Shown here: positions 12,196 through 54,753 of the stretch, piece after piece | How positions within the stretch are numbered: the stretch's first letter is position 1 | How the letters are laid out: the number at the start of each line of letters is the position of its first letter | Source: Patescibacteria group bacterium | GTDB lineage: Bacteria; Patescibacteriota; Patescibacteriia; Magasanikbacterales; GWA2-37-8 | Length of the DNA: 55,574 nt | Direction of reading: 5' to 3' | Assembly (NCBI GenBank): GCA_004321885.1 | Contig: SCQK01000001.1 | Coordinates: forward strand, 1-55,574 | The notes under the pieces: model-generated | Databases searched by the model: none | Seen by the model: only the letters and a program-made list of their open reading frames with translations | Told to the model about the DNA's origin: nothing | Program-made: the position numbers and the translations under genes

Positions 12196-12225
12196 AAATC
12201 TCCCCGCGCGGAAAAATTTTTTACT
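12196..12225 (+). terminator. intrinsic terminator-like hairpin (ccgcgcgg) plus T-run after mrcA
   Basis: ctccccgcgcggaaaaatttttt. Confidence 0.4.
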
Positions 12226-13564: not shown

Positions 13565-14953
13565 TTACGCGCTCACGTAAAATTTCTGTTTGATAAACTC
13601 CATCTCTTGTTTTAAGCGCAAGTCGTTTTCTGTTTTTTTGCCGATTAGTTTGTCGGCGTGCATGGCTGTGGTGTGGTCGCGGCCACCCAACTCGTCGCCA
13701 ATGGCTGGGTAAGACATGTTTAGCTCACTGCGCATCAGGTGCATAATAATCTGGCGCGGCGCGGAGAAGCGCTTTTCGCGGCTCTGGCCCAGAATATCAC
13801 CCGAGGCAATGCCATAATAGGCGCAGACCGCGTCTATGATTTGTTGCGGGGTTACTGACCTCTGCATCAGCCGCGCTTCCATGCTGGCCAGCAAGTTTTT
13901 TACCGAATCCGGCGTGGGCTCGGTGTTTTTCAGTTGGTGGAAAGCCATGATTTTGTTGAGCGCTCCTTCCAGTTCGCGAATGTTTTTTTGGATAATGGTA
14001 GCCACCAGGCGCAAGATGTCTTCGGTGAGGGCGTAATTTTTCTCGGCGCACTTTTTTTGCAAAATGGCGATGCGAGTTTCCAAATCCGGCGGGGCTACAT
14101 CCACAATCATGCCCCACTCAAAGCGCGATTTCAGGCGGTCTTCCAGGGCCGGGATGGCCTTGGGTGGTCGGTCCGAGGTCATCACCACCTGCTTGTTCTG
14201 TTGGTGCAGTTCATTGAAGGTATGAAAAAAAGATTCCTGGGTTTTGTCTTTGCCGGAAATGAATTGAATGTCGTCTATGAGAAGCAGATCAATATTGCGG
14301 TAGCGGTTTTGGAAATTTTTGGCATTGCCTTCGCGCACCGAGGAGATGTAGTCGTTGGAAAATTTCTCGGCGCTGGCGTACATGACATTAAAGTGCGGCG
14401 CGTTTTTCAAAATATGATTGCCAATGGCTTGCAGGAGGTGGGTTTTGCCCAATCCCACCCCACCGTAAATAAAAAGCGGGTTATAGGATTCGCCGGGTTT
14501 GCGCACCACGGCCTGGGCCGCGGCAAAAGCCAGTTCAGTGCCGCTGCCGACCACGAAGTTGTCAAAAATATATTTGGGATTGAGGATGAATTCGCCGCCG
14601 GACTGACCCGTTGGAGGCGCCGGCGTTTCTAACGGGGTTTGGAAAGAATACTCGGCGCGCAGGGCGCCGGCTGCGGCGGCCGGCATGTTTTTGATATTGT
14701 AAATTTTGTATTCCAATTTTTTGATGGGCTTGCCCGTGATACGTTCCATTGATTGCACAATCATGTGGTGATACTTTTTTTCCAGCCAGGCTTTGTTGAA
14801 GGCGCTGGGCACGCAGAGCTCGGCCTGGTTGTCTTGGTAGTTTAGAATTCCGGTATTTTTAAACCAGGTCACGAAGTTTGGTTTAGAAATAGATAACTCT
14901 AATTCTGCCAGGACCGCTTGCCAGATGTCGGTGGTGTTCATACAAACATCCAA
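13565..14953 (-). CDS. dnaA: chromosomal replication initiator DnaA
   Basis: AAA+ Walker A GGVGLGKTHLL and a C-terminal DnaA-box-binding domain. TTG start. Confidence 0.95.
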   Translation of the reverse strand: MDVCMNTTDIWQAVLAELELSISKPNFVTWFKNTGILNYQDNQAELCVPSAFNKAWLEKKYHHMIVQSMERITGKPIKKLEYKIYNIKNMPAAAAGALRAEYSFQTPLETPAPPTGQSGGEFILNPKYIFDNFVVGSGTELAFAAAQAVVRKPGESYNPLFIYGGVGLGKTHLLQAIGNHILKNAPHFNVMYASAEKFSNDYISSVREGNAKNFQNRYRNIDLLLIDDIQFISGKDKTQESFFHTFNELHQQNKQVVMTSDRPPKAIPALEDRLKSRFEWGMIVDVAPPDLETRIAILQKKCAEKNYALTEDILRLVATIIQKNIRELEGALNKIMAFHQLKNTEPTPDSVKNLLASMEARLMQRSVTPQQIIDAVCAYYGIASGDILGQSREKRFSAPRQIIMHLMRSELNMSYPAIGDELGGRDHTTAMHADKLIGKKTENDLRLKQEMEFIKQKFYVSA

Positions 14954-15355: not shown

Positions 15356-15456
15356 GTTCGCTGCCGGCGAATATGTTCTCGCTTTCCTCGCCCGCGAGGG
15401 CTCGGCCATCCCGACTGAGTCGGGATAAGGCGCTGCGAACACATTCGCCGGCAGCT
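15356..15456. repeat. composite nested palindromic element with a family-B core
   Basis: gctgccggcgaatatgttc ... cccgactgagtcggg ... gaacacattcgccggcagc, between rpmH and rnpA. Confidence 0.6.
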
Positions 15457-17712: not shown

Positions 17713-18996
17713 CTACTGCAGTAGGTCGTCAAGTTCGCATGCAAGCAGGGCTGATTTGTTTAATAATATCTGCTCATTTGGATTTAATTTGTCCGCTGTC
17801 ATTCTTATAACTTTGGTTGCAATTCCATTCCCGAGCATTACGTTGTTTGTTTTTTTTAGGTAATCCTCATTTTTTTTATTAAAAAGCGAGGCATACTTTT
17901 TTAATTTTTTTTGAGTCGCGGAGTTTGAACGGGCGTCATTGCCGGAGAATTCAATTTTTTTATCAATTTTTTTATCTATTTCTATTGGCAGGTCTCCTTC
18001 TCTAAATTCAATCCAGTAGTCGCTGGTGGCATAAATAATTTTAACAGCGCTACCTTCTTCCGTCGCGTATCTAAAAATAAAAGAAAAATTTTCAGTGTGA
18101 AAATCCTGGTGAATGGAAATTTTTTCCAGTTCTTTAACGGTGTGGATTTCATAATCGTCTAAAAGCTGCCGATAACTTTCACGCCAATTTTTTAGCCAGT
18201 TTTTGATATAGGTCTGATTCACGAATAATGGCGAAAGATCGTTATTGAGATTTTCATCACTCACCCTATTCATTTGTATGGTCAGTTTATCAAAAAGAGT
18301 TCGCACACCCTTCACCTCAATATTTTTCGCCGTTAGGTAATCAAAATCCGGCACGATTTTTTTGCTCATGTACCAAAGTAAATCATAAATATCCCGCCCC
18401 TTTTCTTCATAAATAGCGTCTCCTACGCCGCGCGTGCCGCGCAAAAAAATAGCGGCTAATTTGCTGGCCATCAAGGCGGACATGTTGTAAGTTAAGATGA
18501 CAAAAGAAAGCTGGCCATGGTTTATTGGGCGCCGATCAGTGACTGTCTTTGGAGCGCTAAAATGGTTGAGGTCTATTTTTACGTGCACCTGATTGGAGGG
18601 ATGGCCGAGATTGAGTTCGTTGCCGACATGAAATTTCAAAAGCAATCCGCGGCCATTGTTGATCTTAGTGGTCAGAAAATCGGAATTGGCTCCATACGTA
18701 TTTATGAAATATTTTTCAATTTCATTTTTTAATTTTTCCAAGAATTTATCCGTTACTTCGCCAATAACTTCAAAATCCAAATCCTCGGACATGCGGTCAA
18801 GTCCGTGGATTACGCGCAGAGCCGACCCGCCATACATAGTCCATTGGCTGTACTGGGCGTGGTGATAAATAAAATTGAGAACATAATACTGCAGTTCTTC
18901 TTTGAGAGAGACGCGCCGCGTCATGGCGTCTAGGCCGCCATAGGCGGCAAGGTCATCAAGCTTTTTTTTCAGAACCATTGTTATTTGTTCGCTCAT
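17713..18996 (-). CDS. abiEii: AbiEii/AbiGii-family nucleotidyltransferase toxin (type IV TA / abortive infection) with a ~130-aa C-terminal extension
   Basis: MYGGSALRVIHGLDRMSEDLDFEV is the DUF1814 NTase motif. Overlaps abiEi by 4 nt. Confidence 0.8.
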   Translation of the reverse strand: MSEQITMVLKKKLDDLAAYGGLDAMTRRVSLKEELQYYVLNFIYHHAQYSQWTMYGGSALRVIHGLDRMSEDLDFEVIGEVTDKFLEKLKNEIEKYFINTYGANSDFLTTKINNGRGLLLKFHVGNELNLGHPSNQVHVKIDLNHFSAPKTVTDRRPINHGQLSFVILTYNMSALMASKLAAIFLRGTRGVGDAIYEEKGRDIYDLLWYMSKKIVPDFDYLTAKNIEVKGVRTLFDKLTIQMNRVSDENLNNDLSPLFVNQTYIKNWLKNWRESYRQLLDDYEIHTVKELEKISIHQDFHTENFSFIFRYATEEGSAVKIIYATSDYWIEFREGDLPIEIDKKIDKKIEFSGNDARSNSATQKKLKKYASLFNKKNEDYLKKTNNVMLGNGIATKVIRMTADKLNPNEQILLNKSALLACELDDLLQ

Positions 18997-19607
18997 ACGA
19001 ATTTGCTGATTAGTGAATAAAATTTTTTCTGCTCTCCCGCCTCCATTTCATCAATATCAATTCGCAATTCCTTAGTTAACTTTTTAATCCCAGCCAATTT
19101 TTTGATGCCGCGGAACTGGCGAGTTCGGAAATACAATAAATCAAACAAGGCCTTGGCCGGAGAAGCGATAAAAAAATCAAATTTGCCTTTGAATAAAGAA
19201 AAGCCGGAAAATGATTCGTTATTTATGGACTGGTAAGCAAAATTACCGGCTTTTGATTCGTAGTCTCTCGTAACCTTGGGAGTAACCGAAGTAATGGTGT
19301 GTATCGCTTCGGTGGCCAGATTATAATACTGCAAAGCGGCCCAGGAACTTACATATGATGGGCTGCGGATAATATTTGCGAGAAAAAAAGAATACGAGAT
19401 ATCTAACCGGTTTTTTTCAAAATAATCATCCGAAACATATAGGCCCCTTTTGAGCCGCAGAATTTCCTTGTATTTCAAAAATCGGCTGATGTAGGTGTCG
19501 GTCGTGGTTTTGGCGAGCCCCATCTGGCTGGCGAGCTGGTAGATAGTATCTTTGCTGAAGTGGGGCAATGAATTTAGCTGTATTAAGAGGTTTTTCTTGC
19601 TTTTCAT
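18993..19607 (-). CDS. abiEi: AbiEi-family antitoxin / transcriptional regulator (type IV TA)
   Basis: N-terminal wHTH-like region, ~200 aa, directly upstream of and overlapping abiEii. A TTGACA-N17-TACGAT promoter lies upstream on the minus strand. Confidence 0.75.
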   Translation of the reverse strand: MKSKKNLLIQLNSLPHFSKDTIYQLASQMGLAKTTTDTYISRFLKYKEILRLKRGLYVSDDYFEKNRLDISYSFFLANIIRSPSYVSSWAALQYYNLATEAIHTITSVTPKVTRDYESKAGNFAYQSINNESFSGFSLFKGKFDFFIASPAKALFDLLYFRTRQFRGIKKLAGIKKLTKELRIDIDEMEAGEQKKFYSLISKFV

Positions 19608-32799: not shown

Positions 32800-34116
32800 A
32801 TGTCACAACTTACTGTCGTGGTTGGCGCCCAGTGGGGCGATGAGGGCAAGGGGAAAATAACCGACTATCTGGCCAAAGACGCCGACTTTGTGGTTCGTTT
32901 CCAAGGAGGCAACAACGCCGGACATACGTTGGTAGTTGGGGATAAAATTTACAAACTACACCTGATTCCATCGGGTGTTTTGTATCCGGGCGCGGTTTCA
33001 ATAATCGGCAACGGCGTGGTGGTGGACCCGCTCACCCTGCTAAAAGAAATCAGCGAGTTTAAAAAAGACGGCCTGGCGCTTAATCTAAAAATCAGCAACC
33101 GTTGTCATGTCATCATGCCATATCACATTGCCTTGGATGGGGCTTTGACCGGACATCAGGGCGGGCTGGCCGCCGGCAGCACCAACCGCGGCATTGCCCC
33201 GGTCTGCGCCGATAAAAGCTATCGTCACGGCATCCGGCTGGGCGATTTGCTGGAACCGGAAATGCTTCGGGAAAAATTAGCCGTGTCATACAATTTCAAC
33301 AAAGCGATTTTGGAAAAAATTTTTAACACGCCTTTCGCCCTGTCGGAAGAAGAAATTTATAATCAGTTTTTGGATTATGGCAAATTATTGGCGCAGTACA
33401 TTGACGATACTGATGTTTTGCTTTATCGCGCCTACAAAGAAGGCAAAAATATCTTGTTTGAAGGGGCGCAGGGTTTGTCCTTGGATCTGGATGTCGGCGT
33501 GTACCCGCATACCACCAGCACCAACACGTTGGCCAGCCATATCGGCGTGGGCACGGGCGTGGGATACGACGGGAATAAACGCGTAATCGGAGTGGCCAAG
33601 GCATACGTGAGCCGCGTGGGCACCAGTCCTTTTATCACCGAACTGCCCGAAGAAGAAGCCAAGGCCTTGCGCGACAAGGGCGGCGAATACGGCACGACCA
33701 CTGGCCGTCCGCGCCGCGTGGGCTGGCTGGATTTGGTGCAACTGCGGCAGGCCGTGCGCTGTAACGGGCTGACTGAATTGGCGCTCATTAAATTGGACGT
33801 GCTAGCCGATTATGAAAAAGTGTTGGTTTGCACCTCGTATGATATAGATGGAAAAGACACCAGAGAAATGCCGGCCAGTTTGTCGCAGTTGCGCCGGGCC
33901 AAACCGGTTTATCAAGAATTCACCGGTTGGCCGGTGATAGATGGAACGGCTTTGAAACAAGGCGGGTTTAAGGGGTTGCCGCTTGAGATAAAAAACTTTG
34001 TGGAGTTTATTGAGAAAGAAACAGAGTGTCCGATCAGTATGTTGTCGTTCGGACCGGAGCGGGAACAAACCATTATTCGTGTCATTGCGAGCGAAGCGAA
34101 GCAATCCCATTCGTAA
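32800..34116 (+). CDS. purA: adenylosuccinate synthetase
   Basis: QWGDEGKGKITD, GGNNAGHT and GTTGRG motifs. The C-terminal 12 aa are encoded by the family C repeat. Confidence 0.95.
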   Translation: MSQLTVVVGAQWGDEGKGKITDYLAKDADFVVRFQGGNNAGHTLVVGDKIYKLHLIPSGVLYPGAVSIIGNGVVVDPLTLLKEISEFKKDGLALNLKISNRCHVIMPYHIALDGALTGHQGGLAAGSTNRGIAPVCADKSYRHGIRLGDLLEPEMLREKLAVSYNFNKAILEKIFNTPFALSEEEIYNQFLDYGKLLAQYIDDTDVLLYRAYKEGKNILFEGAQGLSLDLDVGVYPHTTSTNTLASHIGVGTGVGYDGNKRVIGVAKAYVSRVGTSPFITELPEEEAKALRDKGGEYGTTTGRPRRVGWLDLVQLRQAVRCNGLTELALIKLDVLADYEKVLVCTSYDIDGKDTREMPASLSQLRRAKPVYQEFTGWPVIDGTALKQGGFKGLPLEIKNFVEFIEKETECPISMLSFGPEREQTIIRVIASEAKQSHS

Positions 34117-34163
34117 TTATAGGGATTGCTTCGGTCCCGACTAAGTCGGGGCCTCGCAATGAC
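34081..34163. repeat. composite nested palindromic element (family C arms gtcattgcgag...gaagcaatccc / gggattgcttcg...ctcgcaatgac enclosing a family-B core)
   Basis: Spans the purA stop and the annotated purL start. Confidence 0.8.
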
Positions 34164-36540
34164 AACATCAAATATGATAACGACTGATTTCACGAAAATG
34201 GATGAAGCGCAAATAAAGGAATTTTTGGTTGCCAACAGAATCGCGCTGACGGTGGAAGAAATTTTGAAGATCCAAAACGAAATCTTGAAACGGCCACCCA
34301 CGCTGGCCGAGTGTATTTTGTGGTCCATTCAGGGATCAGAGCACAGCTCGTACAAATCCAGTCGTCCGCACTTGAAACAATTTCACACCAGCGGTCCCAA
34401 CGTAATACTCGGCCCCAGTGAAGACGCCGGCATTGTGGAAATTTGCTGCGACAACGAGGGCCGAAAATACGGCGTAGTGATAAGCCACGAATCGCACAAT
34501 CATCCGTCGCAAGTGGTGCCCTACGAGGGCGCGGCCACGGGCGTAGGCGGCAATGTGCGCGATGTCTGCTGCATGGGCGCGAAAGTAATCGCCTGCGCCG
34601 ACCCTCTGCGCTTCGGACAAATTGACAGTAATAAATCCAAATGGGTGCACGAGGGCGTGGTCTCGGGCATTGCCGGCTATGGCAATCCAATCGGCGTGCC
34701 AAACATCGGCGGCGACTTGTATTACGACGAATCCTACAATGAAAATTGTCTGGTCAACATTGTTACTTTGGGTGTCTTGCGCGAAGACGACATCATACAC
34801 TCGCGCGCGCCGCAAAACGCCGATGGTTATGATTTGGTTTTGGTCGGCAAGCCAACTGACAACAGCGGCTTTGGTGGCGCCAGTTTTGCTTCGTTGGAAT
34901 TAAAAGAAGAAGAAAAAGAACTCAACAAGGGCGCGGTGCAGGAGCCGAACGCTTTTTTGAAGCGCCATTTGCTCAAATCCACCTACGCGCTTTTCAAAAA
35001 AATAAAAGAGGGCGGTTTGATGGATAAAGTGGGTTTCAAAGATTTGGGCGCCGGAGGAATTGCCTGCGCTTCAGTGGAATTGGCCGACGCGGCCGGCTAT
35101 GGCGCCGAAGTGGATATTGATAAAATCCCCAAGGGCATGAACGGACTTAATCCGGCCGTGATTTTGTGCTCCGAGACGCAGGAAAGATTTATGTGGGTGA
35201 GTCATCCGGACGTGACACCGGTTATTTTGGAGCATTATAATGAAATCTTTGATTTGCCCGGCATTGCCGAAGGCGCGCGAGCGGCGGTGGTGGGGAAAAT
35301 TCGCGCTGACGGGCGCTATGTGGTGACAGCCGGCGGAGAAGAAATCGTGAGCGCGCGAGCGCAAGACGTGACACGGGGATTATTGTACAATCGGCCATGG
35401 GAAAAACCCGAGAAAAAATTGAGTGAACCAAACTTGCCCGAGCCAACCGATTACAGTGAAATACTTTTAAAAATTTTGGCCCACGAAAATGTGGCCTCGC
35501 GTTTGCCGGTTTATGAACAGTACGACAAGCAAGTGCAGGGCATCACAATGATTGAATCGGGCCGGGCTGACGCGGGCGTTTTGCAGCCATTTAAGGATGA
35601 CAGTTACCCGGAGGAAATTCGGCAAACCGGCGTCGCTTTGTCAGTGGACCAAAATCCGCGCTACTCCAAGATTGATTCTTATTGGGGGGCGGTAAACGCG
35701 GTAGTGGAAAGCTGCCGCAATGTGGCGGCTGTCGGCGCTGTGCCGTGGGCGTTGACCGATTGTTTGTGCTATGGCAATCCGGAAAAGCCAACCCAGATGT
35801 ATGAATTCGTGGAAGGGGCGCGCGGGGTGGCCGAGGCGGCCAAGGGTTTGCATTTGAAGGACTTCCCGGAAAATCCGGTGCCGATTGTTTCGGGCAATGT
35901 GTCGCTTTACAACGAAAGCAAAGGCAAACCCATCGCTCCCAGCGCCATAATTTCATGCACCGGAAAATTGAGCGACGTGAAGTGCGCGATTGACATGTCG
36001 TTTAAAAAAGCCGACTCAATTATTTTTATGGTCGGCGAGCGCAAAGACGAATGCGGGGGCAGTGTTTATTATAATTTGTTTAAAGAATTGGGAGCCAATG
36101 TACCCAAGCCGGATTTGGCGGAAGCGGAAAAACAAATTTTTGCCGTGACTGACGCGATAGAGGCTGGTCTGGTTTTGGCGGCTCACGATATTTCCGACGG
36201 CGGCTTGGCCGTCTGCTTGGCCGAGATGAGTTTTGGAAATGAGATTGGTTTCGTCTGTCATTCCCGCGAAAGCGGGAATCCAGGGTCGCAACTTCGCCCC
36301 GACAAAGTTCTTTTTTCCGAAACCGGCGGTTTTGTTTTGGAAGTGTCGCCGGAAAACCGCGGCGCAGTGGAAGAAATTTTCGCCAAACGCGGAGTAAAAA
36401 TCTTTGCCATCGGAAAAACCGCCTGTCATTCCGGGCTTGACCCGGGATCCATAACAACGTTAAAGTTTGGAGATGTAATCAACGTACCTTTAAAAGAAGC
36501 AAAAAAAGCGTGGACAGAGGGTTTGTGGGGCAAGCTGTAA
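34126..36540 (+). CDS. purL: phosphoribosylformylglycinamidine synthase subunit PurL
   Basis: PurM-like duplicated domains of FGAM synthase II. The true start is probably MTTSNM at ~34159. Contains an in-frame family A repeat (VCHSRESGNPGSQ). Confidence 0.9.
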   Translation: MLRSRLSRGLAMTTSNMITTDFTKMDEAQIKEFLVANRIALTVEEILKIQNEILKRPPTLAECILWSIQGSEHSSYKSSRPHLKQFHTSGPNVILGPSEDAGIVEICCDNEGRKYGVVISHESHNHPSQVVPYEGAATGVGGNVRDVCCMGAKVIACADPLRFGQIDSNKSKWVHEGVVSGIAGYGNPIGVPNIGGDLYYDESYNENCLVNIVTLGVLREDDIIHSRAPQNADGYDLVLVGKPTDNSGFGGASFASLELKEEEKELNKGAVQEPNAFLKRHLLKSTYALFKKIKEGGLMDKVGFKDLGAGGIACASVELADAAGYGAEVDIDKIPKGMNGLNPAVILCSETQERFMWVSHPDVTPVILEHYNEIFDLPGIAEGARAAVVGKIRADGRYVVTAGGEEIVSARAQDVTRGLLYNRPWEKPEKKLSEPNLPEPTDYSEILLKILAHENVASRLPVYEQYDKQVQGITMIESGRADAGVLQPFKDDSYPEEIRQTGVALSVDQNPRYSKIDSYWGAVNAVVESCRNVAAVGAVPWALTDCLCYGNPEKPTQMYEFVEGARGVAEAAKGLHLKDFPENPVPIVSGNVSLYNESKGKPIAPSAIISCTGKLSDVKCAIDMSFKKADSIIFMVGERKDECGGSVYYNLFKELGANVPKPDLAEAEKQIFAVTDAIEAGLVLAAHDISDGGLAVCLAEMSFGNEIGFVCHSRESGNPGSQLRPDKVLFSETGGFVLEVSPENRGAVEEIFAKRGVKIFAIGKTACHSGLDPGSITTLKFGDVINVPLKEAKKAWTEGLWGKL
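36257..36284. repeat. family A repeat, in-frame in purL
   Basis: gtcattcccgcgaaagcgggaatccagg. Confidence 0.8.
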
Positions 36541-38065: not shown

Positions 38066-39412
38066 ATGAAAGTCGCCATCATACAATTCCCCGGCAGTAA
38101 CTGTGAATCGGAATCCATTTACGCGGTGCGGCGCGCCGGCATGGAGCCGGTGGAATTTTTGTGGAATCAAGAGCACGACGAGCTGAAAAATTTTGACGGC
38201 TATTTCATCGTGGGCGGATTTTCCTACGAAGACCGCTCGCGCTCGGGCATCATCGCCTCGCTTGATCCCCTGCTTACCGCCTTGAAAGCGGAAAACGAAA
38301 AAGGCAAACCGATTCTGGGCGTTTGCAATGGGGCGCAGATTTTGGTGGAGTCGGGCATTGTGCCGGGCCTAGCCGACTATGCCGTGGGCCACCACACCAA
38401 AGATTTTGGTGTGGTGGCAGGTATGGCGCTCGCTGTAAACAAACGAGTGAAAGACGGACGCGTGCTGGGCACCGGATTTTATAATTCCTGGTCCAACGTC
38501 CAACTGTCGGCCCCGAGCGAACGCTCGGCTTTCACGCGCCACATGAAGCCGGGCGAATTTATAAATATTCCCGTGGCGCACGGCGAAGGCCGCTTTACCA
38601 TGCCGGACGAACTCTTGGCCGAATTGATTGTCAAAAACCAAACAGTGTTTCGCTACTGCGATGACAGGGGAGAAATCAGTTCGGAATTTCCGGTAAATCC
38701 GAACGGCTCCATGCATAATTTAGCGGCTGTCTGCAACGCGGCCGGCAACGCCATGGCCATGATGCCCCACCCCGAACGCACGCCGAACGGCCAAGCCATT
38801 TTTACTTCCATGCGCGAGTATGTTGAAAAAGAAAAAACCATAACGATGAAAAACGTTACGGATAATTTCCGGCCAACCGTGATGGAAATATCCGAGTATA
38901 AGCCGGAACCAAATTCTACAGAATTAGTCATCGGTTTAATCATTACAGACAATGAAGCCGGCACGGTAAAAAATACTTTGCGTCGGTTGAATATTGACGC
39001 GGAAATTACGAAATACATTCACTGGGAAATTTCGGCTGACGACCCGGCGACGATTGTCGCTTCGCCGGCTTGCCGCGACGAGCTATTTAACTCCAACAAA
39101 GAAAAGATAGTGCAACTGGGCTCCACAGCCCCGGTCGCCTGCGGCGACCGTGGGACTATGGAGTCAACCAATGCGCTTCAGAATGACAATACGGCTTATC
39201 TGCTCGTGCGCTATCGCGAAGATTTCGTGGGGCAAAGCAAACAGTATGTTTTGGAAAATCGGCTGGGCGTTTCCGGGGTTAAAAAGATAACCAAAGGCAC
39301 GCTCTGGAAAATTTCCGCGCCCAGTGATAGGATTGAGGAAATCGTAAGCAAGGTTATTTCCAGCAGGATTTTATTCAATCAATTTTCACAGGGGTGTTTT
39401 AAATATATATAG
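38066..39412 (+). CDS. purQ: FGAM synthase glutaminase subunit PurQ with a ~210-aa C-terminal extension, possibly tandem PurS-like domains
   Basis: Class I glutamine amidotransferase triad: GVCNGAQIL Cys and the His in PHPER. The extension resembles two ~85-aa PurS-like modules. Confidence 0.8.
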   Translation: MKVAIIQFPGSNCESESIYAVRRAGMEPVEFLWNQEHDELKNFDGYFIVGGFSYEDRSRSGIIASLDPLLTALKAENEKGKPILGVCNGAQILVESGIVPGLADYAVGHHTKDFGVVAGMALAVNKRVKDGRVLGTGFYNSWSNVQLSAPSERSAFTRHMKPGEFINIPVAHGEGRFTMPDELLAELIVKNQTVFRYCDDRGEISSEFPVNPNGSMHNLAAVCNAAGNAMAMMPHPERTPNGQAIFTSMREYVEKEKTITMKNVTDNFRPTVMEISEYKPEPNSTELVIGLIITDNEAGTVKNTLRRLNIDAEITKYIHWEISADDPATIVASPACRDELFNSNKEKIVQLGSTAPVACGDRGTMESTNALQNDNTAYLLVRYREDFVGQSKQYVLENRLGVSGVKKITKGTLWKISAPSDRIEEIVSKVISSRILFNQFSQGCFKYI

Positions 39413-39413
39413 T

Positions 39414-40805
39414 ATGGATTACACTTCCATCATCAGACAAAATCTGAATAATTGTCTGACGCAGACGAATTTAAATATCGGCAAGAAAAAAATTGGCAAG
39501 GTGCGCGATACCTATGAACTCGCCGATAAAATGATTCTAGTCACTACTGACCGACAGAGCGCTTTTGACCGCATTTTGGCTTCCATCCCGTTTAAGGGGC
39601 AAGTGCTCAATCAAACCAGCGCCTGGTGGTTTGAAAAAACCAAACACATTATCCCCAATCATGTTTTGTCTATCCCCGACCCCAACGTGACCATGGCCAA
39701 AAAATGCCAAGTTTTTCCGATTGAGTTTGTGGTGCGCGGGTATATCACCGGCACCACCGACACTTCGGCTTGGGTAAATTATCAAAAAGGGGTGCGTAAT
39801 TTTTGCGGCAACGCTTTACCCGAGGGTCTGAAAAAAAATCAGCAGCTGGCCAAGGCGATTGTCACGCCCACCACCAAGTCCGACGCCCACGACCGTCTGA
39901 TCAGTCCCGAAGAGATTATCGCCGAAGGACTGATGTCGCGTGAAGATTGGAACTTCGCTTCAACCAAGGCCCTGGAACTTTTTGAATTCGGCCAACAAGT
40001 GGCTCGCGAGCACGGCTTGATTTTGGTTGACACCAAATACGAGATGGGTAAAGACGAAAACGGCAATATTATTTTGTTAGACGAGATCCACACGCCCGAT
40101 TCCAGTCGCTATTGGATCGCCGAAACATACGAAGACCGTTTCGCCGCCGGACAAGAACCGGAAAACATAGATAAAGAATTTTTGCGCTTGTGGTTTAAAG
40201 AACACTGCGACCCGTATGGCGACAAAGAACTGCCGCCGGCGCCCGAGGAATTGGTGGTGGAATTATCCCGCCGCTATATCATGCTTTACGAAATGATTAC
40301 TGGCGAAAAATTTGTTTTCCCGGAGGACGCCGACATCAACGAGAGAATGAAAAATAATTTGGCTGTCATCGCGAACTCTCCTCTGAGAATAAACTCCGCA
40401 AAGCAACCCCCCGCAAAAAGGGCGGTGATAATAATGGGTTCGGAAGCGGACGCGGAGTTCACGAAAAAGATTACGATAAAATTGGACGAACTGGGGGTCA
40501 GCCACGAAGAGCATGTCGCGTCGGCGCACAAACAGCCGGCAAAGGTTTTGGAAATTTTAGAGAAAAATAAAAATGAGAAAGTGGTGTACGTGACCATCGC
40601 CGGCCGTTCCAACGCGCTCTCGGGTTTTGTGGCCGCCAATTCCGACGCGCCCACCCTGGCCTGTCCACCCTTTGTCGACAAGCTGGATATGCTCGTGAAC
40701 ATTCACTCTACTTTGCAGATGCCGAGTAACGCGCCAGTTTTAACCGTGCTTGATCCAGGCAACTGCGCCTTGGCCGTTAAAAGAATTTTTGATATATGTC
40801 GCTAA
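39414..40805 (+). CDS. purC: fusion protein: SAICAR synthetase (PurC) plus C-terminal PurE (AIR carboxylase / N5-CAIR mutase) domain
   Basis: PurC N-terminal motif GKVRDTY...VTTDRQSAFD. PurE C-terminal motif AVIIMGSEADAE...VASAHKQP...VTIAGRSNALSGFVAANSDAPTLACPP. Confidence 0.85.
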   Translation: MDYTSIIRQNLNNCLTQTNLNIGKKKIGKVRDTYELADKMILVTTDRQSAFDRILASIPFKGQVLNQTSAWWFEKTKHIIPNHVLSIPDPNVTMAKKCQVFPIEFVVRGYITGTTDTSAWVNYQKGVRNFCGNALPEGLKKNQQLAKAIVTPTTKSDAHDRLISPEEIIAEGLMSREDWNFASTKALELFEFGQQVAREHGLILVDTKYEMGKDENGNIILLDEIHTPDSSRYWIAETYEDRFAAGQEPENIDKEFLRLWFKEHCDPYGDKELPPAPEELVVELSRRYIMLYEMITGEKFVFPEDADINERMKNNLAVIANSPLRINSAKQPPAKRAVIIMGSEADAEFTKKITIKLDELGVSHEEHVASAHKQPAKVLEILEKNKNEKVVYVTIAGRSNALSGFVAANSDAPTLACPPFVDKLDMLVNIHSTLQMPSNAPVLTVLDPGNCALAVKRIFDICR

Positions 40806-42222: not shown

Positions 42223-45072
42223 ATGTGCGGAGTTGTAGGAATTTATTCCAAAAAACCAGTGGCGCAGGAATTGTATGATTCTTTAATCCACTTACAGCAT
42301 CGCGGGCAAGACGCGGCCGGCATTTTGACGTACCAAGAAAAATTTCATTTCAAAAGGGGGCTGGGACTGGCGCGCGATATTTTCCACACGCACGACATGG
42401 AGCGGCTCACCGGCAATATCGGCATCGCGCACACGCGCTACCCCACCACCGGCCGCATTGAAATTGAAGATGCCCAGCCGTTTTGGACCGGCGTGCCTTT
42501 TGGCATGGCCTTGGCGCATAACGGCAATCTGGTAAATTACAACGAGGTCAAGCGTAAGGTTTTTGAAGAACGTCATCGCTATGTCAACTCCACCAGCGAC
42601 GGCGAAGTAATTTTGCACGTGTTGGCCGATGAGTTGGTAAAAGGCATGGCAGAAAATCACGTTGATACTTTTTTTGACCTGCTGTGCGACGCCGTGGCCC
42701 GTCTTTTCAAAGCGACCAGCGGAGCATATTCAGTGGTCAGCATTATCGTGGGCAAGGGCATGCTGGCGTTTCGCGATCCGCATGGCATCCGTCCGCTCAC
42801 GCGTGGCGCGCGCGTCAATCCCGATGGCAGCAAGGACTATATTTTTGCTTCCGAAAACATCATGTTTTATCCGCTTGGCTTTAAGCAAGAAGAGGATGCA
42901 AAACCCGGCGAGGTGATATTTATAGACAACGACGGCAATTTACACAGCAGAGTGGTTGGACGCGAAGCCGCTTTGGGCCAGCGCGAACCCGAATTTTCTC
43001 CTTGCATTTTTGAATACATTTATTTCGCGCGCCCAGACTCTATGATGAATAACGTGAGCGTGTACCGCTCGCGTCTGCGCATGGGACAAAATTTGGCCAA
43101 GGCGTGGAAGACAAAATTTCCCAACGTAATGCCCGACGTCGTCATACCCGTGCCTTTCACTTCCAACACCGCGGCATTGGCCATGGCGCACGAACTCGGC
43201 GTGCGCTACAGCGAAGGACTTTATAAAAACGCCTTCATCGGCCGCACTTTTATCATGCCCAATCAGGAATTGAGGCGAAAGTCAGTGCGCTACAAGCTTA
43301 ATCCGCAGGAAACGGAAATTCGGGACAAAAATGTGATGCTTTTGGACGACAGCATCGTGCGCGGCACGACCAGCCGTGAAATCGTGCAAATGATGCGTGA
43401 GTTTGGAGCCAAGGAAGTATATTTTGTCACCACTTGCCCGCCGGTCAAATTTCCGTGCTTTTACGGAGTGGACATGCCTACGAAATCAGAACTTGTCGCG
43501 TCGGCCCGGACCGAAGAAGAAGTGAGATTATATATCGGCGCTGATATTTTGCTTTATCAAAACATTCCCGACTTGGTGGAAGCAGTCACGCGCGTTCAAA
43601 GCATAGAGCACCCATGTATGGCTTGCCTGAACGGGCACTACGTGACCGGCGACGTGGATGAAAAAAAATTTAAAGAAATAGAAGCGAGTAGAAATAAAGA
43701 TAAGGGGATTAAAAAATCTATGGATATACTTATTATCGGTTCAGGAGCACGCGAGCATGCGATTGCGCGCGCGGTGGTTCGCTCACCGCAAAAACCGCGG
43801 CTGTTTTGTTTTGCTTCAAGCAACAACCCGGGCATACGCGAACTATCGGTCGGTTACGCGGTGGGAAAAATTACCGACCCAACGGCGGTGATAAATTTCG
43901 CCAAAGAGAACGCGATTGATATCGCTATCGTGGGCCCCGAAGCCCCGCTGGCCTCTGGCGTGGCTGACGCCTTGTGGGCGGCAGGCGTGGCTTGTGTTGG
44001 ACCAAAGCAAAAATTGGCGCGGCTGGAAACGAGTAAGGGTTTTACGCGCGATTTACAGGCCGAATTTAAGATTCCGGGCAGTCCGAAATACAAAAAATTC
44101 AGTTCTTTGGAAGGGGCTAAAGAATTTTTATCCGAGCTCGGCGATTTGTACGTGGTAAAAGCGGACGGCCTGATGGGAGGCAAAGGAGTGAAAGTGGCCG
44201 GGGATCATTTGCATACTTATGAAGAAGCGCTGGCCTATTGTCAGGAATTATTGGATAGTTGTCATTCCCGCGAAAGCGGGAATCCAGGTGCGGCCTTTGT
44301 CATCGAAGAAAAGTTAATCGGCCAGGAATTTTCACTGATGAGTTTTTGCGACGGCGAGCATTTGGCTCACACGCCCGCGGTTCAAGATCACAAGCGGGCT
44401 TTTGACGGCGACCAGGGGCCAAACACGGGAGGCATGGGAAGTTATAGCGACGCGGATCATAAATTGCCTTTTTTGACTGATGAAGATATCTGGCAGGCGC
44501 GCGAGATAAATAAAAAAACCGCGGTGGCTTTGAAGGCGAAATTCGGGGAGGGATATGTTGGTGTTTTGTATGGAGGATTTATGGCTACGGCGGACGGAGT
44601 AAAATTGATAGAGTATAATGCCCGTTTGGCCGACCCGGAGGCGATGAACATATTGGCCGTGCTGGAATCGGATTTCGCGGCGCTGTGTCAGGCGATTGTG
44701 GGCGGAAATTTAAGACAAGAGCACGCGCTTTTCGCGAACAAGGCGACGGTTTGTAAATACGCCGTGCCCGAGGGCTACCCGGACAGTCCGGTAAAAAATC
44801 AAAAAATAGACACGAGCGGCGTAGCCGACAAAAATCAATTGTATTTGGCTTCGGTTGACGCGCGAGATGATGGGTTGTACGAACTGGGCTCGCGCGCCAT
44901 CGCGGTGGTGGGCGTGGCCGATACAATTGCCGAGGCGGAAAAAATTGCGGAAGCGGAAGTCAACAATATCAAAGGCCCGCTGTTTCACCGTCAAGACATT
45001 GGAACTCCGGAATTAATTAATAAGAGAATCCAACACATGTCATTCCTGCGAAAGCAGGAATCCAGGATATGA
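42223..45072 (+). CDS. purF: fusion protein: amidophosphoribosyltransferase (PurF) plus phosphoribosylamine-glycine ligase (PurD)
   Basis: N-terminal MCGVVGI nucleophile and PRTase domain to ~aa 480. A continuous frame then runs into the PurD ATP-grasp domain (MDILIIGSGAREHAIA...). Two in-frame family A repeats. Confidence 0.85.
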   Translation: MCGVVGIYSKKPVAQELYDSLIHLQHRGQDAAGILTYQEKFHFKRGLGLARDIFHTHDMERLTGNIGIAHTRYPTTGRIEIEDAQPFWTGVPFGMALAHNGNLVNYNEVKRKVFEERHRYVNSTSDGEVILHVLADELVKGMAENHVDTFFDLLCDAVARLFKATSGAYSVVSIIVGKGMLAFRDPHGIRPLTRGARVNPDGSKDYIFASENIMFYPLGFKQEEDAKPGEVIFIDNDGNLHSRVVGREAALGQREPEFSPCIFEYIYFARPDSMMNNVSVYRSRLRMGQNLAKAWKTKFPNVMPDVVIPVPFTSNTAALAMAHELGVRYSEGLYKNAFIGRTFIMPNQELRRKSVRYKLNPQETEIRDKNVMLLDDSIVRGTTSREIVQMMREFGAKEVYFVTTCPPVKFPCFYGVDMPTKSELVASARTEEEVRLYIGADILLYQNIPDLVEAVTRVQSIEHPCMACLNGHYVTGDVDEKKFKEIEASRNKDKGIKKSMDILIIGSGAREHAIARAVVRSPQKPRLFCFASSNNPGIRELSVGYAVGKITDPTAVINFAKENAIDIAIVGPEAPLASGVADALWAAGVACVGPKQKLARLETSKGFTRDLQAEFKIPGSPKYKKFSSLEGAKEFLSELGDLYVVKADGLMGGKGVKVAGDHLHTYEEALAYCQELLDSCHSRESGNPGAAFVIEEKLIGQEFSLMSFCDGEHLAHTPAVQDHKRAFDGDQGPNTGGMGSYSDADHKLPFLTDEDIWQAREINKKTAVALKAKFGEGYVGVLYGGFMATADGVKLIEYNARLADPEAMNILAVLESDFAALCQAIVGGNLRQEHALFANKATVCKYAVPEGYPDSPVKNQKIDTSGVADKNQLYLASVDARDDGLYELGSRAIAVVGVADTIAEAEKIAEAEVNNIKGPLFHRQDIGTPELINKRIQHMSFLRKQESRI
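44261..44288. repeat. family A repeat, in-frame in the purD portion
   Basis: gtcattcccgcgaaagcgggaatccagg, translating to SCHSRESGNPGA. Confidence 0.8.
45039..45066. repeat. family A variant (cctgcg/cagg) at the purFD 3' end / purN start
   Basis: gtcattcctgcgaaagcaggaatccagg. Confidence 0.75.
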
Positions 45073-45654: not shown

Positions 45655-47235
45655 ATGCATACAGAAGTCGTTAGAATAAATCGGGCGCTGATTTCGGTGT
45701 CAAATAAAACCGGCATAGCGGAGTTTGCCCGCGAACTCCAAAAATTGGGCGTGGAAATAATTTCCACCGGCGGCACGCACAAATTGCTTTGCGAAAACAA
45801 AATACCGGCCGTGGAAATTTCCCAGTACACCGGCTTTCCGGAAATGATGGACGGCCGCGTGAAAACCCTGCACCCCTTGGTGCACGGTGGCATCTTGGGT
45901 TTGCGGGATAAACACGCCGAAGCCGCAGCCGGCCATAATATTAAATGGATTGATTTGGTGGTTTGCAATTTGTATCCTTTTTTGGAAACAATAAAAAAAC
46001 CCGGCGTAACCGAGGAGGAAGCGATTGAAAACATAGACATCGGCGGGCCCACCATGATTCGCTCGGCCGCCAAAAATATTGGCTGGACGTGCGCGGTGGT
46101 TGACCCCGAGGATTATAGTAAAATTTTGGCTGAAATAAGAGAAAAAAACGGAGTAAGTTTTGACACGCGCAAAGCACTTTCGGCGAAAGCGTACGCGCAC
46201 ACGACGCGCTATGACGCGGTGATTTCCAATTATTTCAAGCCGGAAAAATTTCCCAAAGAACTCTCGCTCGGTTTTGCTAAATATTATGATTTGCGCTACG
46301 GCGAAAATCCGCATCAGCAAGCCGCGGCCTACAAAGACGAGCTCTGCGCCACAGCGAATATTTTTTTAGCGAAAATCTTGCAGGGCAAGCAGTTATCGTA
46401 CAACAATTTCATTGACGCGGACGCGGCCCTGCAGATGGTAAAGGAATTTGAGCCGCCGGCTTGCGTGATTGTGAAGCATAACAATCCCTGCGGAGCGGCC
46501 ATTGCCGAAAACGCGGAAGCGGCTTTCGCCAAAGCGTTTGCCTGCGATTCGTTGTCGGCTTTCGGCGGGGTGGTGGCGCTTAATCGCGAGTGCGACGCGG
46601 CTCTGGCCGAGAAACTCTCCAAAATATTTTTGGAAATCGTGCTCGCGCCCAAGTTCGCGCCTGCGGCCGTGGAAATTTTATCTAAAAAACAAAATCTGCG
46701 CTTGCTGGAATTGGAAAAAATATCAGTGCCGGCCAGCCGGCTGACTTACAAGCTGATTGAGGGTGGGCTCTTGGCGCAAGACAGCAATACAAAAGAAATT
46801 ACCGAAGCGGATTTGAAAGTCGTGACCAAGCGCCGGCCCGAAACAGGCGAAATTCAAGCCATGCTCTTCGCCTGGAAAATATTGAAGCACATGAAATCAA
46901 ACGCCATTTTGATAGCCAAGGCCGACGCCACGGTGGGAATCGGCGTGGGCCAAGTGTCACGCGTGGATTCGGTGGATATTGCCATAAAAAAATCCGGTAT
47001 GGCTGGCTCCATAGTCCCCGACTTAGTCGGGGCCGTGGAGCCGTTCGCCGGCTGCGTGCTGGCCTCGGACGCCTTTTTCCCCTTCCGCGACAGCATAGAC
47101 AAAATCGCGGCCGCCGCCGGCGTCAAAGCCATTGTCCAGCCCGGGGGTTCCATCAAAGACCAGGAAGTCATCGCGGCCTGCGACGAACACGGCATCGCCA
47201 TGGTCTTTACCGGCCATCGCTGTTTCGCGCATTGA
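45655..47235 (+). CDS. purH: bifunctional AICAR transformylase / IMP cyclohydrolase
   Basis: MGS-like N-terminal region (ALISVSNKTG) and the AICARFT domain. Contains an in-frame family B repeat. Confidence 0.95.
   Translation: MHTEVVRINRALISVSNKTGIAEFARELQKLGVEIISTGGTHKLLCENKIPAVEISQYTGFPEMMDGRVKTLHPLVHGGILGLRDKHAEAAAGHNIKWIDLVVCNLYPFLETIKKPGVTEEEAIENIDIGGPTMIRSAAKNIGWTCAVVDPEDYSKILAEIREKNGVSFDTRKALSAKAYAHTTRYDAVISNYFKPEKFPKELSLGFAKYYDLRYGENPHQQAAAYKDELCATANIFLAKILQGKQLSYNNFIDADAALQMVKEFEPPACVIVKHNNPCGAAIAENAEAAFAKAFACDSLSAFGGVVALNRECDAALAEKLSKIFLEIVLAPKFAPAAVEILSKKQNLRLLELEKISVPASRLTYKLIEGGLLAQDSNTKEITEADLKVVTKRRPETGEIQAMLFAWKILKHMKSNAILIAKADATVGIGVGQVSRVDSVDIAIKKSGMAGSIVPDLVGAVEPFAGCVLASDAFFPFRDSIDKIAAAAGVKAIVQPGGSIKDQEVIAACDEHGIAMVFTGHRCFAH
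47007..47044. repeat. family B 38-bp palindrome, in-frame in purH
   Basis: ggctccatagtccccgacttagtcggggccgtggagcc, translating to GSIVPDLVGAVEP. Confidence 0.8.
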
Positions 47236-49911: not shown

Positions 49912-49918
49912 CAAATTT

Positions 49919-49946
49919 CTGTTTGTATAGAGTTGTATATACAAAT
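49919..49946. repeat. 28-bp hairpin-forming direct repeat, copy 1
   Basis: ctgtttgtatagagttgtatatacaaat (stem tttgtata/tatacaaa). Confidence 0.7.
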
Positions 49947-50010
49947 AGAAATCGTAGAATGCCATTTTATAACTAATATTAGCATAGAAACGCCATTTTT
50001 GCATTTCTTG

Positions 50011-50038
50011 CTGTTTGTATAGAGTTGTATATACAAAT
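50011..50038. repeat. 28-bp hairpin-forming direct repeat, copy 2 (64-bp spacer)
   Basis: Identical 28-mer. Confidence 0.7.
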
Positions 50039-50096: not shown

Positions 50097-50134
50097 GGCT
50101 CTACAGCCCCGACTAAGTCGGGGACTATGGAGCC
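50097..50134. repeat. family B 38-bp palindrome
   Basis: ggctctacagccccgactaagtcggggactatggagcc. Confidence 0.8.
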
Positions 50135-50168
50135 GGCGATGACAGCGATGGTCAGAAAGATAGTAGCC

Positions 50169-50230
50169 TGTGGATAATTGTGGATAAGTCTGTGCATAAG
50201 TGGTGAATTTGTGGGGATATGTGGTTAACG
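50169..50230. promoter_or_regulatory. DnaA-box cluster distant from dnaA
   Basis: Two perfect TGTGGATAA boxes (50169-77 and 50179-87) plus tgtgcataa and tgtggggat, bracketed by two family B copies. An AT-rich stretch follows at ~50440-50590. Confidence 0.5.
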
Positions 50231-50250: not shown

Positions 50251-50288
50251 GGCTCTACAGCCCCGACTAAGTCGGGGACTATGGAGCC
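50251..50288. repeat. family B 38-bp palindrome
   Basis: ggctctacagccccgactaagtcggggactatggagcc. Confidence 0.8.
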
Positions 50289-50593
50289 AGCCGAGAAGTG
50301 AGCGGGAGAGCGGGAGCGAGGCTTCATGCCCGAGAGCCGGCACGTTGGGCTGGTCGAGGAAAGCGAGAACACATTCAAACCGCTTGGATCGCGCGAGCTT
50401 CAAAGTTTTTTGCGGGAGACTGCTATTCAAATTTTTTTCATTATTTTTTTTCAATTATTTATTGTCGTTTCTTTCGGAACTCCAGAAAATATTTTTATCC
50501 GCTACATCATGTAGTAAAAAAATAAAAATAAAAAATTATTGTCTTTGCTTGTAAAATATGTTATACTGATTTTAGAAAATTTATTTTTTAATT

Positions 50594-50631
50594 CTGGATT
50601 CCCGGTCGCCTGTGGCGACAGGGAATGACAG
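50594..50631. repeat. family A-related palindrome variant
   Basis: ctggattcccggtcgcctgtggcgacagggaatgacag. A TGtTATACT extended -10 lies just upstream at ~50557. Confidence 0.6.
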
Positions 50632-53604: not shown

Positions 53605-54580
53605 TATGTTTTTTTTGTCATTGCGAGTCACGAAGTGGAGAAGCAATCCCTCGCATTGGGCAGGGGATTGCTTCGTCGCTCTGCTCCTCGCAATGACACT
53701 GCTTCCTTCCCCCGTCAGTGCGGTTAGCATCTCTCCATCCAAAGCGTTTGTTACCATAGACCCGGGCGCTAGCCAGACAATGATTTTGAAAATTAAAAAC
53801 GATGGGCCGCGAGACGCGCGCTATAAACTTTTGGTTTTGGGAGCCAAGCAAAATGAAAACGGGGATTTATTTTACGGCGCGAATTTTTGGCCGGCCGAAA
53901 CCTGGGTTCAGCCTGAAAGCAATGTGGTGGAAGTAGGGGCCGGCCAAGAGCGTAAAGTAATTTTTGAAATCAACGCGCCGCGTGATGCCGCGCCCGGTTC
54001 CAATTATCTTTCATTGCAGGTTGAGCCGAGCTCGTCGGCAGGCGCTGGCGGGGTGCAGTTGCAGGCCCGCGTAGCCTCGCTTTTAATTTTGCAGGTGGCG
54101 GGAAGCGTGCGCGAGGAATTGGAAATTTTACAATGGTCTCCGCGAGCCTACTCTTGGCGCAAAGCAGTCTGGCCTTTTGAGCTTATCGCGCAAAACAACG
54201 GCCCTGTTGAGGTGGAAACTGCAGCGCGAGTAGTCGTGAAAAATTGGTTGGGCCGGGAAAAAATTATAAAAGAAATTGAACTGGGAAAAATTTTAGCCGG
54301 CGCCATACGGGTTTCGCATCAGGAAGTTAAACCACACGGGGTCGTTTATTGCAAAGGTCTTTGTCCGACAATATATACGCCCGATTCAAAAATTTGGCTG
54401 CCGGGCAGATACACGGTAAAAACAGAAATCAAATACGGGCTGACCAAGCAAACCGCGCGCGCCGAGGCACAAGTCTGGTTTTGGCCTTTATGGAGCCTTT
54501 TAGCTGGCCTACTACTTATTGTAGTAGGTAGTCTCGCTGGCTCCATAGCGCTTCGTAAAGCTCGCTCGCTGGCTCCATAG
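53555..54580 (+). CDS. hypothetical cell-surface protein with a C-terminal TM anchor (true start probably ~53693, after the repeat)
   Basis: C-terminal anchor FWPLWSLLAGLLLIVVGSLAGSIAL. The stop codon is supplied by a family B repeat. Confidence 0.55.
   Translation: MPSTRTLLPSLRRINCDMFFLSLRVTKWRSNPSHWAGDCFVALLLAMTLLPSPVSAVSISPSKAFVTIDPGASQTMILKIKNDGPRDARYKLLVLGAKQNENGDLFYGANFWPAETWVQPESNVVEVGAGQERKVIFEINAPRDAAPGSNYLSLQVEPSSSAGAGGVQLQARVASLLILQVAGSVREELEILQWSPRAYSWRKAVWPFELIAQNNGPVEVETAARVVVKNWLGREKIIKEIELGKILAGAIRVSHQEVKPHGVVYCKGLCPTIYTPDSKIWLPGRYTVKTEIKYGLTKQTARAEAQVWFWPLWSLLAGLLLIVVGSLAGSIALRKARSLAP
53617..53697. repeat. family C composite palindromic element
   Basis: gtcattgcgag...gaagcaatccc / ggggattgcttcg...ctcgcaatgac. 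Confidence 0.8.
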
Positions 54581-54608
54581 TCCCCGACTAAGTCGGGGCT
54601 GTGGAGCC
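54571..54608. repeat. family B 38-bp palindrome overlapping the stop codon
   Basis: ggctccatagtccccgactaagtcggggctgtggagcc, where the tag within ggctccatag is the stop. A 16-bp direct duplication ctcgctggctccatag lies just upstream. Confidence 0.8.
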
Positions 54609-54753
54609 AACGCGTGACAAGAAGCCGTCCCTAACCGGGCGGTTTTCTTGTGTCCAAAAATATTTTTGACCACAAGCAAAGTTATCCACAGTTTGCGGGG
54701 TAAAGAATCATTCCGTGGAAGCCTATAAAATGCTATAATAGAGTACAAATCTA

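Follow-up and report, generated by a model that had tools for sequence, protein, structure and literature searches.

Repetitive extragenic palindromic (REP) sequences have been divided into two superfamilies, tagged by GTAG and by CGTC, and their occurrence inside genes is documented (Di Nocera et al. 2013, PMC3733652). The CGTC-1 class comprises the dRS3 repeat of Neisseria and the Rickettsia palindromic element (RPE) RPE-6; for CGTC REPs no dedicated transposase is known, and insertion sequences (IS) are known to target REPs (PMC3733652). Here we analyse a complete 55,574-bp NCBI contig (SCQK01000001.1; "the window" hereafter means this whole stretch) of a metagenome-assembled genome labelled 'Patescibacteria group bacterium', a member of the candidate phyla radiation (CPR), and within it a 38-nt palindrome, Family B, which an original prediction drawn from the bare sequence had placed in purH, at the end of a surface-protein gene and around a cluster of DnaA boxes. 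In Rickettsia, the in-frame insertion of REP-like repeats into housekeeping genes is a textbook oddity. The best reading of Family B is that of a new, lineage-restricted REP/RPE-like palindromic repeat family in a CPR host, and we put at roughly 70% the probability that it is a small, non-autonomous repeat of this kind that arrived at its present sites secondarily.

A degenerate match to the 38-mer recovered four copies in the window (dinucleotide shuffles expect 0.00), all at least 35/38 identical. One lies in purH on the plus strand (palindrome 47005-47042; 47002-47042 with its tag GCT), where it is read in frame as AGSIVPDLVGAVEP. Two are intergenic and on the minus strand: ig1 (palindrome 50097-50134, unit 50097-50137), which in canonical orientation has ATCGCC before the palindrome and TGAATGT after it, and ig2 (palindrome 50251-50288, unit 50251-50291), a direct repeat of ig1 (96% identity over 47 nt, starts 154 nt apart). 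The fourth, on the plus strand, sits at the 3' end of the ORF with NCBI locus tag EPN28_00245 (palindrome 54571-54608, unit 54568-54608), with a TAG stop codon at 54578-54580 inside its left arm. The last three had been predicted at exactly these coordinates; the purH copy is in frame as proposed, its position (given as 47007-47044) being 2 nt off. A fifth full copy was found outside the window in contig SCQE01000103.1 (hereafter L001), and the ig1 region is 86% identical over 73 nt to L001 4580-4652.

All four window copies fold into a two-tier hairpin (folding z -3.7 to -7.7), the most stable being that at 54571-54608 (-21.4 kcal/mol, z -7.7). The unit begins with an unpaired 5' tag, (T)CGCY, and continues with a 10-bp outer stem, GGCTCCATAG / CTRTGGAGCC, a one-base bulge and an apical hairpin, CCCCGAC-TWA-GTCGGGG (7-bp inner stem, 3-nt loop). 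The outer stem has one T.G pair, always on the GGCTCCATAG strand, the other strand having an A.C mismatch there. Alignment of the four window copies with L001 (n=5) defines an invariant block of about 41 nt that shares the left tag, and the boundaries of the family are therefore consistent, as the original prediction had supposed; the right flank TRAATGT is common to the three intergenic copies (ig1, ig2 and L001). Four of the six reading frames of the canonical element are open; purH uses an open one and EPN28_00245 one that contains a stop. The 17-nt core CCCCGACTWAGTCGGGG, or a near-variant of it, is also found at 6804-6820 and 34135-34151, and a loop variant, ATCCCGACTGAGTCGGGAT, at 15408-15426, so that the shorter cores expected near 6803, 15408 and 34135 do exist and do belong to other hairpins.

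By the broad definition of a REP (an imperfect palindrome of 20-40 nt, repeated, dispersed and forming a stable hairpin) Family B belongs to the class. It falls outside the GTAG-tagged superfamily, which carries an unpaired 5' GTAG/GYAG/GTRG directly before the stem-loop or 2 nt before it: the left flank is (T)CGCY in 5/5 copies, and GTAG/GTGG occurs only inside the 3' arm, 2 nt past the inner stem-loop, the other strand reading CTAC-AG-stem, the mirror of the definition. It likewise falls outside the CGTC-tagged superfamily (CGTC/TGTC tag, 8-9 bp stem starting with AT, 4-5 nt loop, CCA tail). TGTC never stands directly at a Family B stem; in ig1 alone a TGTCAT is present, beginning 10 nt upstream of the stem, and the tails are TAA, TGA, AAC or GTT.

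The secondary origin of the copies is clearest in purH (45655-47235; protein TAN34261.1), in which Family B encodes MAGSIVPDLVGAV, residues 449-461. When the protein was aligned with its 59 closest homologues (at most 64% identity, most of them 510-513 aa long against 526 aa here), these 13 residues were gapped in all 59, and the segment is thus derived rather than ancestral. The orthologue comparison suggested with the original prediction accordingly identifies a lineage-specific insertion. That the segment might be ancestral coding sequence, similar to the other copies by convergence or chance, has the intact purH reading frame in its favour and nothing else; absence from the 59 homologues, 36/38 identity to 54571-54608 and 95% complementarity over 42 nt to ig2 refute it, and we assign it a negligible probability. 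Among three solved PurH structures aligned to the protein, all without the segment in this loop, 4ehi and 3zzm are shorter at this loop and 9ou7 is at least as long, the loop being variable. In an AlphaFold model built on 61 sequences (mean pLDDT, the predicted local distance difference test score, 90.6), the insert falls in the stretch of lowest confidence (block 451-460, pLDDT 57), a surface coil between helix 436-446 and strand 468-471; in the model, then, Family B lengthens a variable surface coil by 13 residues. Unrelated hairpin-forming inserts occupy the same loop in other CPR PurH proteins (P0043, at L122 4543-4572, and P0053, at L123 4259-4333), which argues that it is a permissive site repeatedly entered by different palindromes, and Family B inserts are probably selectively neutral at the protein level. 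P0043 (L122 3001-4773) and P0053 (L123 2924-4513) are metagenomic PurH sequences of 529-590 aa, the closest homologues and apparently of CPR origin; they contain repeat-like peptides such as SLRGSLATTEAIS, VILSETKNL and SPPAKGETPG, of which at least the loop inserts are hairpin-forming DNA.

The same pattern is seen in purQ. A palindrome at 39119-39166 (minus strand), in frame in the purQ ORF (open reading frame) 38066-39412 as GSTAPVACGDRGTMES, has Family B arms around another apical module, GGTCGCCTGCGGCGACC, and when compared with 39 homologues, both it and a second palindrome at 38388-38418 stand out as unique insertions, in a linker where different repeat-derived peptides are found in other CPR PurQ proteins. 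Secondary insertion is favoured because the purH insert occurs in 0/59 homologues and the purQ palindromes are unique among 39. The palindrome at 38388-38418 (GHHTKDFGVVA, 11 residues) belongs to a family with arms CCACACCAAA..TTTGGTGTGG that is also present, again in frame, at 6446-6474 in an lspA-like ORF.

Direct repeats of at least 5 nt abut none of the five copies, and the 5-mers common to both ig1 flanks are internal to the flanks, so that a copy-by-copy search for target-site duplications returned none. The original prediction had described a 16-bp "target-like duplication" near the copy at 54571-54608. A 16-mer, CTCGCTGGCTCCATAG, is indeed present twice (54534-54549 and 54562-54577) but is not a target-site duplication, since its two occurrences do not enclose the element: the downstream one consists of Family B's own tag and left arm (L001 likewise has TCGCT and the left arm, TATCGCTGGCTCCATAG), and the upstream copy is an arm of a neighbouring composite hairpin (54488-54548). 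In that hairpin, swapped Family B arms, TATGGAGCC (54489-54497) and GGCTCCATA (54539-54547), pair around the palindrome CCTACTACTTATTGTAGTAGG (54508-54528), which recurs in L001 at 7257-7279. The model implicit in the earlier claim, a classical MITE (miniature inverted-repeat transposable element) with terminal inverted repeats, a DDE transposase and target-site duplications, could point to the inverted arms as well as to this 16-nt repeat. With flanking duplications at 0/5 copies, a length of 38-43 nt, far below the 70-300 bp of MITEs (PMC3733652), and arms contiguous with the hairpin rather than forming termini around an internal region, it was rejected and is very improbable.

At EPN28_00245 (ORF 53555/53606-54580) the TAG in the left arm is the in-frame stop codon, so that in the literal sense the element does donate the stop, as predicted; an older stop that it might have replaced cannot be reconstructed from homologues only 26-28% identical. 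In these distant homologues a basic tail comes after the C-terminal membrane anchor, which together with a below-threshold, weak similarity to WxL-interacting surface proteins makes the earlier label of surface protein a reasonable one. In EPN28_00245 the C-terminal membrane anchor, LWSLLAGLLLIVVGSLAGSIA, is encoded by the composite hairpin. At 54618-54650 (plus strand) lies a terminator-like hairpin with a U tract, the third of three consecutive stem-loops that occupy the last ~170 nt (173-nt fold: -94.5 kcal/mol, z -10.1). This hairpin is separate from Family B, which lacks the U tract that defines a GC-rich intrinsic terminator: no T run follows the copies on either strand, a terminator scan listed 0/4 of them, and an intrinsic terminator was rejected. 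An integron attC site (no GTTRRRY), a dif/Xer site (defining motifs missing) and a DNA-uptake sequence (solo arms rare) were likewise rejected as identities for the repeat.

The arrangement at this gene end also bears on whether Family B is a recruited cis-acting element, one that would stabilise the 3' end of mRNA or modulate translation termination at gene ends, or form a structural boundary around DnaA sites. The hairpins at 54571 and in L001 are in sense orientation, at or 7 nt past a stop codon and ahead of a terminator, and the T.G pair on the GGCTCCATAG strand, against A.C opposite, would favour an RNA hairpin made from that strand. Liang, Rudd and Deutscher (2015) are reported to have found that E. 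coli REPs reduce translation when a stop codon lies within about 15 nt, an effect that would count for such a role. However, descent from one master copy would account for the T.G pair equally well; ig1, ig2 and the purQ variant are oriented opposite to the surrounding genes; and the copies inside the coding sequences of purH and purQ make no sense in these terms.

The boundary version of this idea draws on the positions of the DnaA boxes, scanned as perfect or one-mismatch TTATCCACA. ig1 and ig2 flank a cluster of four at 50169-50228 (minus strand; TTATCCACA twice, TTATGCACA and TTAACCACA, that is, two perfect and two one-mismatch boxes on a single strand), which is context rather than part of the element, and a further perfect box at 54682-54690 lies 74 nt from the copy at 54571-54608. 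The copies at 50097 and 50251 thus do bracket the cluster, as had been predicted; no evidence was found to support a functional link, and the association is not taken as such, being weak, post hoc and drawn from two independent loci only, both in scarce intergenic space. The L001 copy has no DnaA box nearby. A second replication origin at 50 kb was rejected: the cluster is 36.7 kb from an oriC-like cluster in the dnaN-dnaA gap (13389-13540), the cumulative GC-skew minimum is near 12 kb, and skew and the dnaA-dnaN boxes place the origin near 12-14 kb, making the 50-kb cluster secondary. Some copies may have been recruited, whether as 3' stem-loops or as DNA structural boundaries, but this leaves the intragenic ones unexplained; as an account of the family as a whole we consider it unlikely. 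The 50169-50228 cluster comes after tRNA-Arg and tRNA-Ala and is followed by an AT-rich stretch and a gene for a tetratricopeptide-repeat (TPR) membrane protein, and the box at 54682-54690 lies upstream of the promoter-like region of the last gene.

Family B is one of at least five hairpin families, which together occupy about 2.6% of the contig. At least 36 palindromic repeat units were counted in 55.6 kb (2328-54608; 1,423 bp in total, about one per 1.5 kb), 19 of them wholly within ORFs and in frame, 6 across gene ends and 11 intergenic; gene starts were ORF-based, and a few units scored as N-terminal may precede the true start. Hosts of in-frame repeats include purL, purM, purQ, purF-purD, purH, polA, holA and lspA, with purA affected at its 3' end, and the peptides CHSRESGNPG, PPLxKGE and ITRSEATKQSP recur. 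The TGTCATTCCCGCGAAAGCGGGAATCCA repeats that accompany Family B match the published CGTC-1 REP definition (PMC3733652), the commonest units (TGTC-ATTCCCGC-GAAA-GCGGGAAT-CCA) having the TGTC variant of the tag, an 8-bp stem starting with AT, a 4-nt loop and the CCA tail.

Apical modules are shared between these families. The Family B module CCCGACTWAGTCGGG also crowns two CGTC-type REP scaffolds on the minus strand: one at 6793-6831 (TGTCATTCC...GGAATCC, module TCCCGACTAAGTCGGGA), which spans an lspA-like stop codon and the start of the next ORF, and one at 34125-34164 (TGTCATTGCGAG...GAAGCAATCCC), which forms a head-to-head dimer with 34080-34116 between purA and purL. A second module, GTCGCCNNNGGCGAC, crowns both a CGTC-1 scaffold (50594-50630) and the Family B scaffold in purQ (39119-39166). 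The loop variant ATCCCGACTGAGTCGGGAT is the tip of a 97-nt hairpin in the rpmH-rnpA gap (15360-15456, z -5.5), and a 25-nt arm segment of that hairpin recurs inverted, 92% complementary, at 50352-50376 beside ig2. Directly 3' of tRNA-Ala a 31-nt direct repeat (49916-49946 and 50008-50038; 97% identical, 92 nt apart) contains in each copy a palindrome, TTTGTATA..TATACAAA. At several genes REP units coincide with coding boundaries: the AATGACA tag of CGTC-type REPs supplies the TGA that ends the lspA-like ORF, where it overlaps the start ATG of the following ORF (6826), as well as the ATG of purL (34159), and a REP at 45038-45072 encodes the last 11 codons of purF-purD (MSFLRKQESRI), ending just before an ATGA at which the purF-purD stop overlaps the purN start.

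Module sharing of this kind could also arise if the repeats did not move themselves and were instead preferred targets of recombination or integration, as dRS3 is for filamentous phage in Neisseria and REPs are for IS, their numbers growing through gene conversion and duplication on a local scale. In keeping with it are the mosaic clusters, in which arms are partial or swapped (54488-54608 and L001 4586-4668), the replacement rather than addition of apical modules within conserved scaffolds, and the lack of a known dedicated transposase for CGTC REPs, together with the role of REPs as IS targets (PMC3733652). Nonetheless, the unique purH and purQ insertions, far from other copies, need a dispersal step, and no IS, phage integrase or prophage lies beside any window copy; we regard this account as improbable. 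A broader reading, which we offer only tentatively and think unlikely, is that CPR genomes hold a modular hairpin system, in which a few scaffolds (TGTCATTCC..., TGTCATTGCGAG... and GGCTCCATAG...) swap apical mini-hairpins (CCCGACTWAGTCGGG, GTCGCCNNNGGCGAC and GGCCTNNAGGCC) and the elements also build gene ends. If so, modular swapping would imply a loop-directed mechanism of replacement or insertion undescribed for REPs; hairpins would supply start codons (the AATGACA tag), stops, stop/start overlaps and even a C-terminal membrane anchor; and hairpin elements would be a significant source of protein-sequence novelty in reduced genomes.

To establish the distribution of Family B beyond the window, an arm-and-core pattern was searched in 185,579 species-representative genomes (GTDB), giving one match to the full element (L001), and in JGI metagenomes, giving none. 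L001 is binned as Nitrospirae and has the same GC content as the window and three repeat families in common with it. Its protein accession is from the same submission batch, so that it does not count as an independent lineage; it probably represents the same or a sister CPR population and is possibly mis-binned. At L001 4586-4668 the Family B copy, in sense orientation, begins 7 nt downstream of a stop codon, and a short same-arm variant, CTGGCTCCACACGCAGTATGGAGCCAG, comes next. The 17-nt core alone gave at least 120 matches in metagenomes, mostly in terminator-like hairpins and a handful inside TGTCATT-type scaffolds; core-only matches were rejected as evidence of spread, their number being of the same order as a rough chance estimate for a 17-mer. 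A scan of IMG/VR for the arms found one hairpin, on a viral contig (IMGVR_UViG_3300032893_000149, 806-835, our L124), whose arms are identical to those of Family B (GGCTCCATAG-ATCGGTAAAC-CTGTGGAGCC) and in which a CATTTA before the hairpin, as at ig2, is suggestive, the arm match alone being at about chance level by a rough estimate. A phmmer search of the peptide encoded by Family B against 1.84 billion representatives returned only an unrelated tandem-repeat protein, an exact look-up of the PurH encoded in the window gave no record, and literature searches by repeat-encoded peptides and by CPR with REP found nothing relevant and no paper reporting in-frame REP-like insertions in Patescibacteria housekeeping genes.

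Several observations weigh against a REP-like repeat that arrived secondarily. Neither of the end tags by which the two described REP superfamilies are defined, GTAG and CGTC, is present in Family B. No transposase, RAYT (REP-associated tyrosine transposase) or other, was found among 10 window ORFs compared with Pfam or among the other translated ORFs inspected by eye, and because the window encodes none we only infer that Family B was mobilised. There are five full copies in all, four in the window and one in L001, which may be the same population, and for this reason no pairs of empty and filled sites between close relatives could be drawn up; with the nearest homologues at most 64% identical, insertion events can be neither dated nor bounded to the base. 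Finally, each of the three perfect DnaA boxes situated outside the oriC-like cluster has a Family B copy within 75 nt, which could hint at function.

If the copies are nonetheless secondary arrivals, they would have reached their present sites leaving no target-site duplication and would persist where they are harmless, in intergenic spacers, in last codons or 3' untranslated regions and in permissive protein loops; such a distribution across intergenic, gene-end and loop positions is what selection would leave after random insertion. A copy in a protein loop would survive only if the insert length is a multiple of three and its frame is among the 4/6 that are stop-free. Hairpin families would exchange apical modules. 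At EPN28_00245 a Family B arm supplies the stop codon in use and the copy, with its neighbours, forms three stem-loops ahead of the terminator, possibly stabilising the mRNA 3' end. A candidate mode of spread is hairpin-dependent single-strand transposition by a Y1/RAYT-like enzyme acting in trans; alternatively, copies may have spread by recombination or template switching between hairpins.

Other features of the contig (GC content 0.50) are listed here for context. dnaN (12221-13345) and dnaA (13565-14953) are on the minus strand, with rpmH and rnpA upstream of dnaA, and the contig also encodes a long run of purine-biosynthesis genes, polA, holA, rmuC and two tRNAs; a search with Rfam 15 at gathering score returned three tRNAs only, with no match to Family B. 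Two pairs of purine genes are fused, purF-purD (42223-45072, 949 aa) and purC-purE (39414-40805, 463 aa). At 17713-19607 on the minus strand an AbiEii toxin (Pfam E 3e-21) is paired with a below-threshold AbiEi-like antitoxin, adjoined by a 353-aa ORF that has no Pfam match.

The DNA is of a known kind, selfish or neutral, here at unusually high density and in a new lineage, to which Family B adds one more family. Family B itself is of less interest than two features of this reduced CPR genome: how densely palindromes stand in frame, and how apical modules pass between scaffolds. Of the purine-biosynthesis genes the majority are affected, internally in purL, purM, purQ, purF-purD and purH and at the 3' end in purA; polA, holA and lspA are affected too. 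Were this general, it would account for many 'CPR-specific insertions' and for unusual N- and C-termini among annotated CPR proteins, caution annotators about repeat-derived start and stop codons, and provide a marker system for strain tracking.

Among known systems the REP superfamilies (PMC3733652) come closest. Like Family B they are imperfect palindromes of 20-40 nt with a short unpaired tag at one end; their stems are conserved and their loops variable and possibly themselves self-complementary; they occur as singletons, dimers and mosaics, with several families per genome, mostly downstream of ORFs and sometimes within genes. The TGTCATTCCCGC-GAAA-GCGGGAAT-CCA units of the window fit CGTC-1 REPs exactly, whereas Family B differs in its tag ((T)CGCY rather than GTAG or CGTC), in its tail (TRA rather than CCA) and in having a 10 + 7 bp two-tier stem with a 3-nt loop where CGTC REPs have an 8-9 bp stem and a 4-5 nt loop. 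It is also worth noting that the published survey did not include CPR bacteria, to which the host of Family B belongs.

In behaviour, Family B resembles the RPEs of Rickettsia. As Ogata et al. (2000) are reported in PMC3733652, these palindromes lie in frame in intact, presumably functional genes of a reduced genome and lengthen housekeeping proteins by short peptides at permissive sites; purH and purQ likewise remain intact with in-frame inserts that their orthologues lack. Going by what that survey says of them, RPE-1 insertions are longer than those of RPE-4 and RPE-6, the latter two being of CGTC type. Family B is shorter than RPE-1, its module sharing among families sets it apart, and the likeness drawn here is one of behaviour. 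RPE-1 measures about 100-150 bp. The dRS3 and NIME (neisserial intergenic mosaic element) mosaics of Neisseria resemble the window in that dRS3 is a CGTC-1 REP, the type of the window's commonest family, and in forming clustered mosaics around variable segments; dRS3 is, however, best known as an integration target, a feature that Family B does not show. Correia elements are MITEs of 100-150 bp with TA duplications, and Family B has neither that size nor such duplications. The QMITE1 and QMITE2 elements of Coxiella, a genome rich in selfish elements, are, like Family B, small non-autonomous repeats that overlap ORFs and 3' untranslated regions, and QMITE2 is a larger element that encloses a REP module (Wachter et al. 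2018, PMC5896051); both kinds measure 150-400 bp and have direct repeats of 2-11 nt, whereas Family B is a unit of about 41 nt with none.

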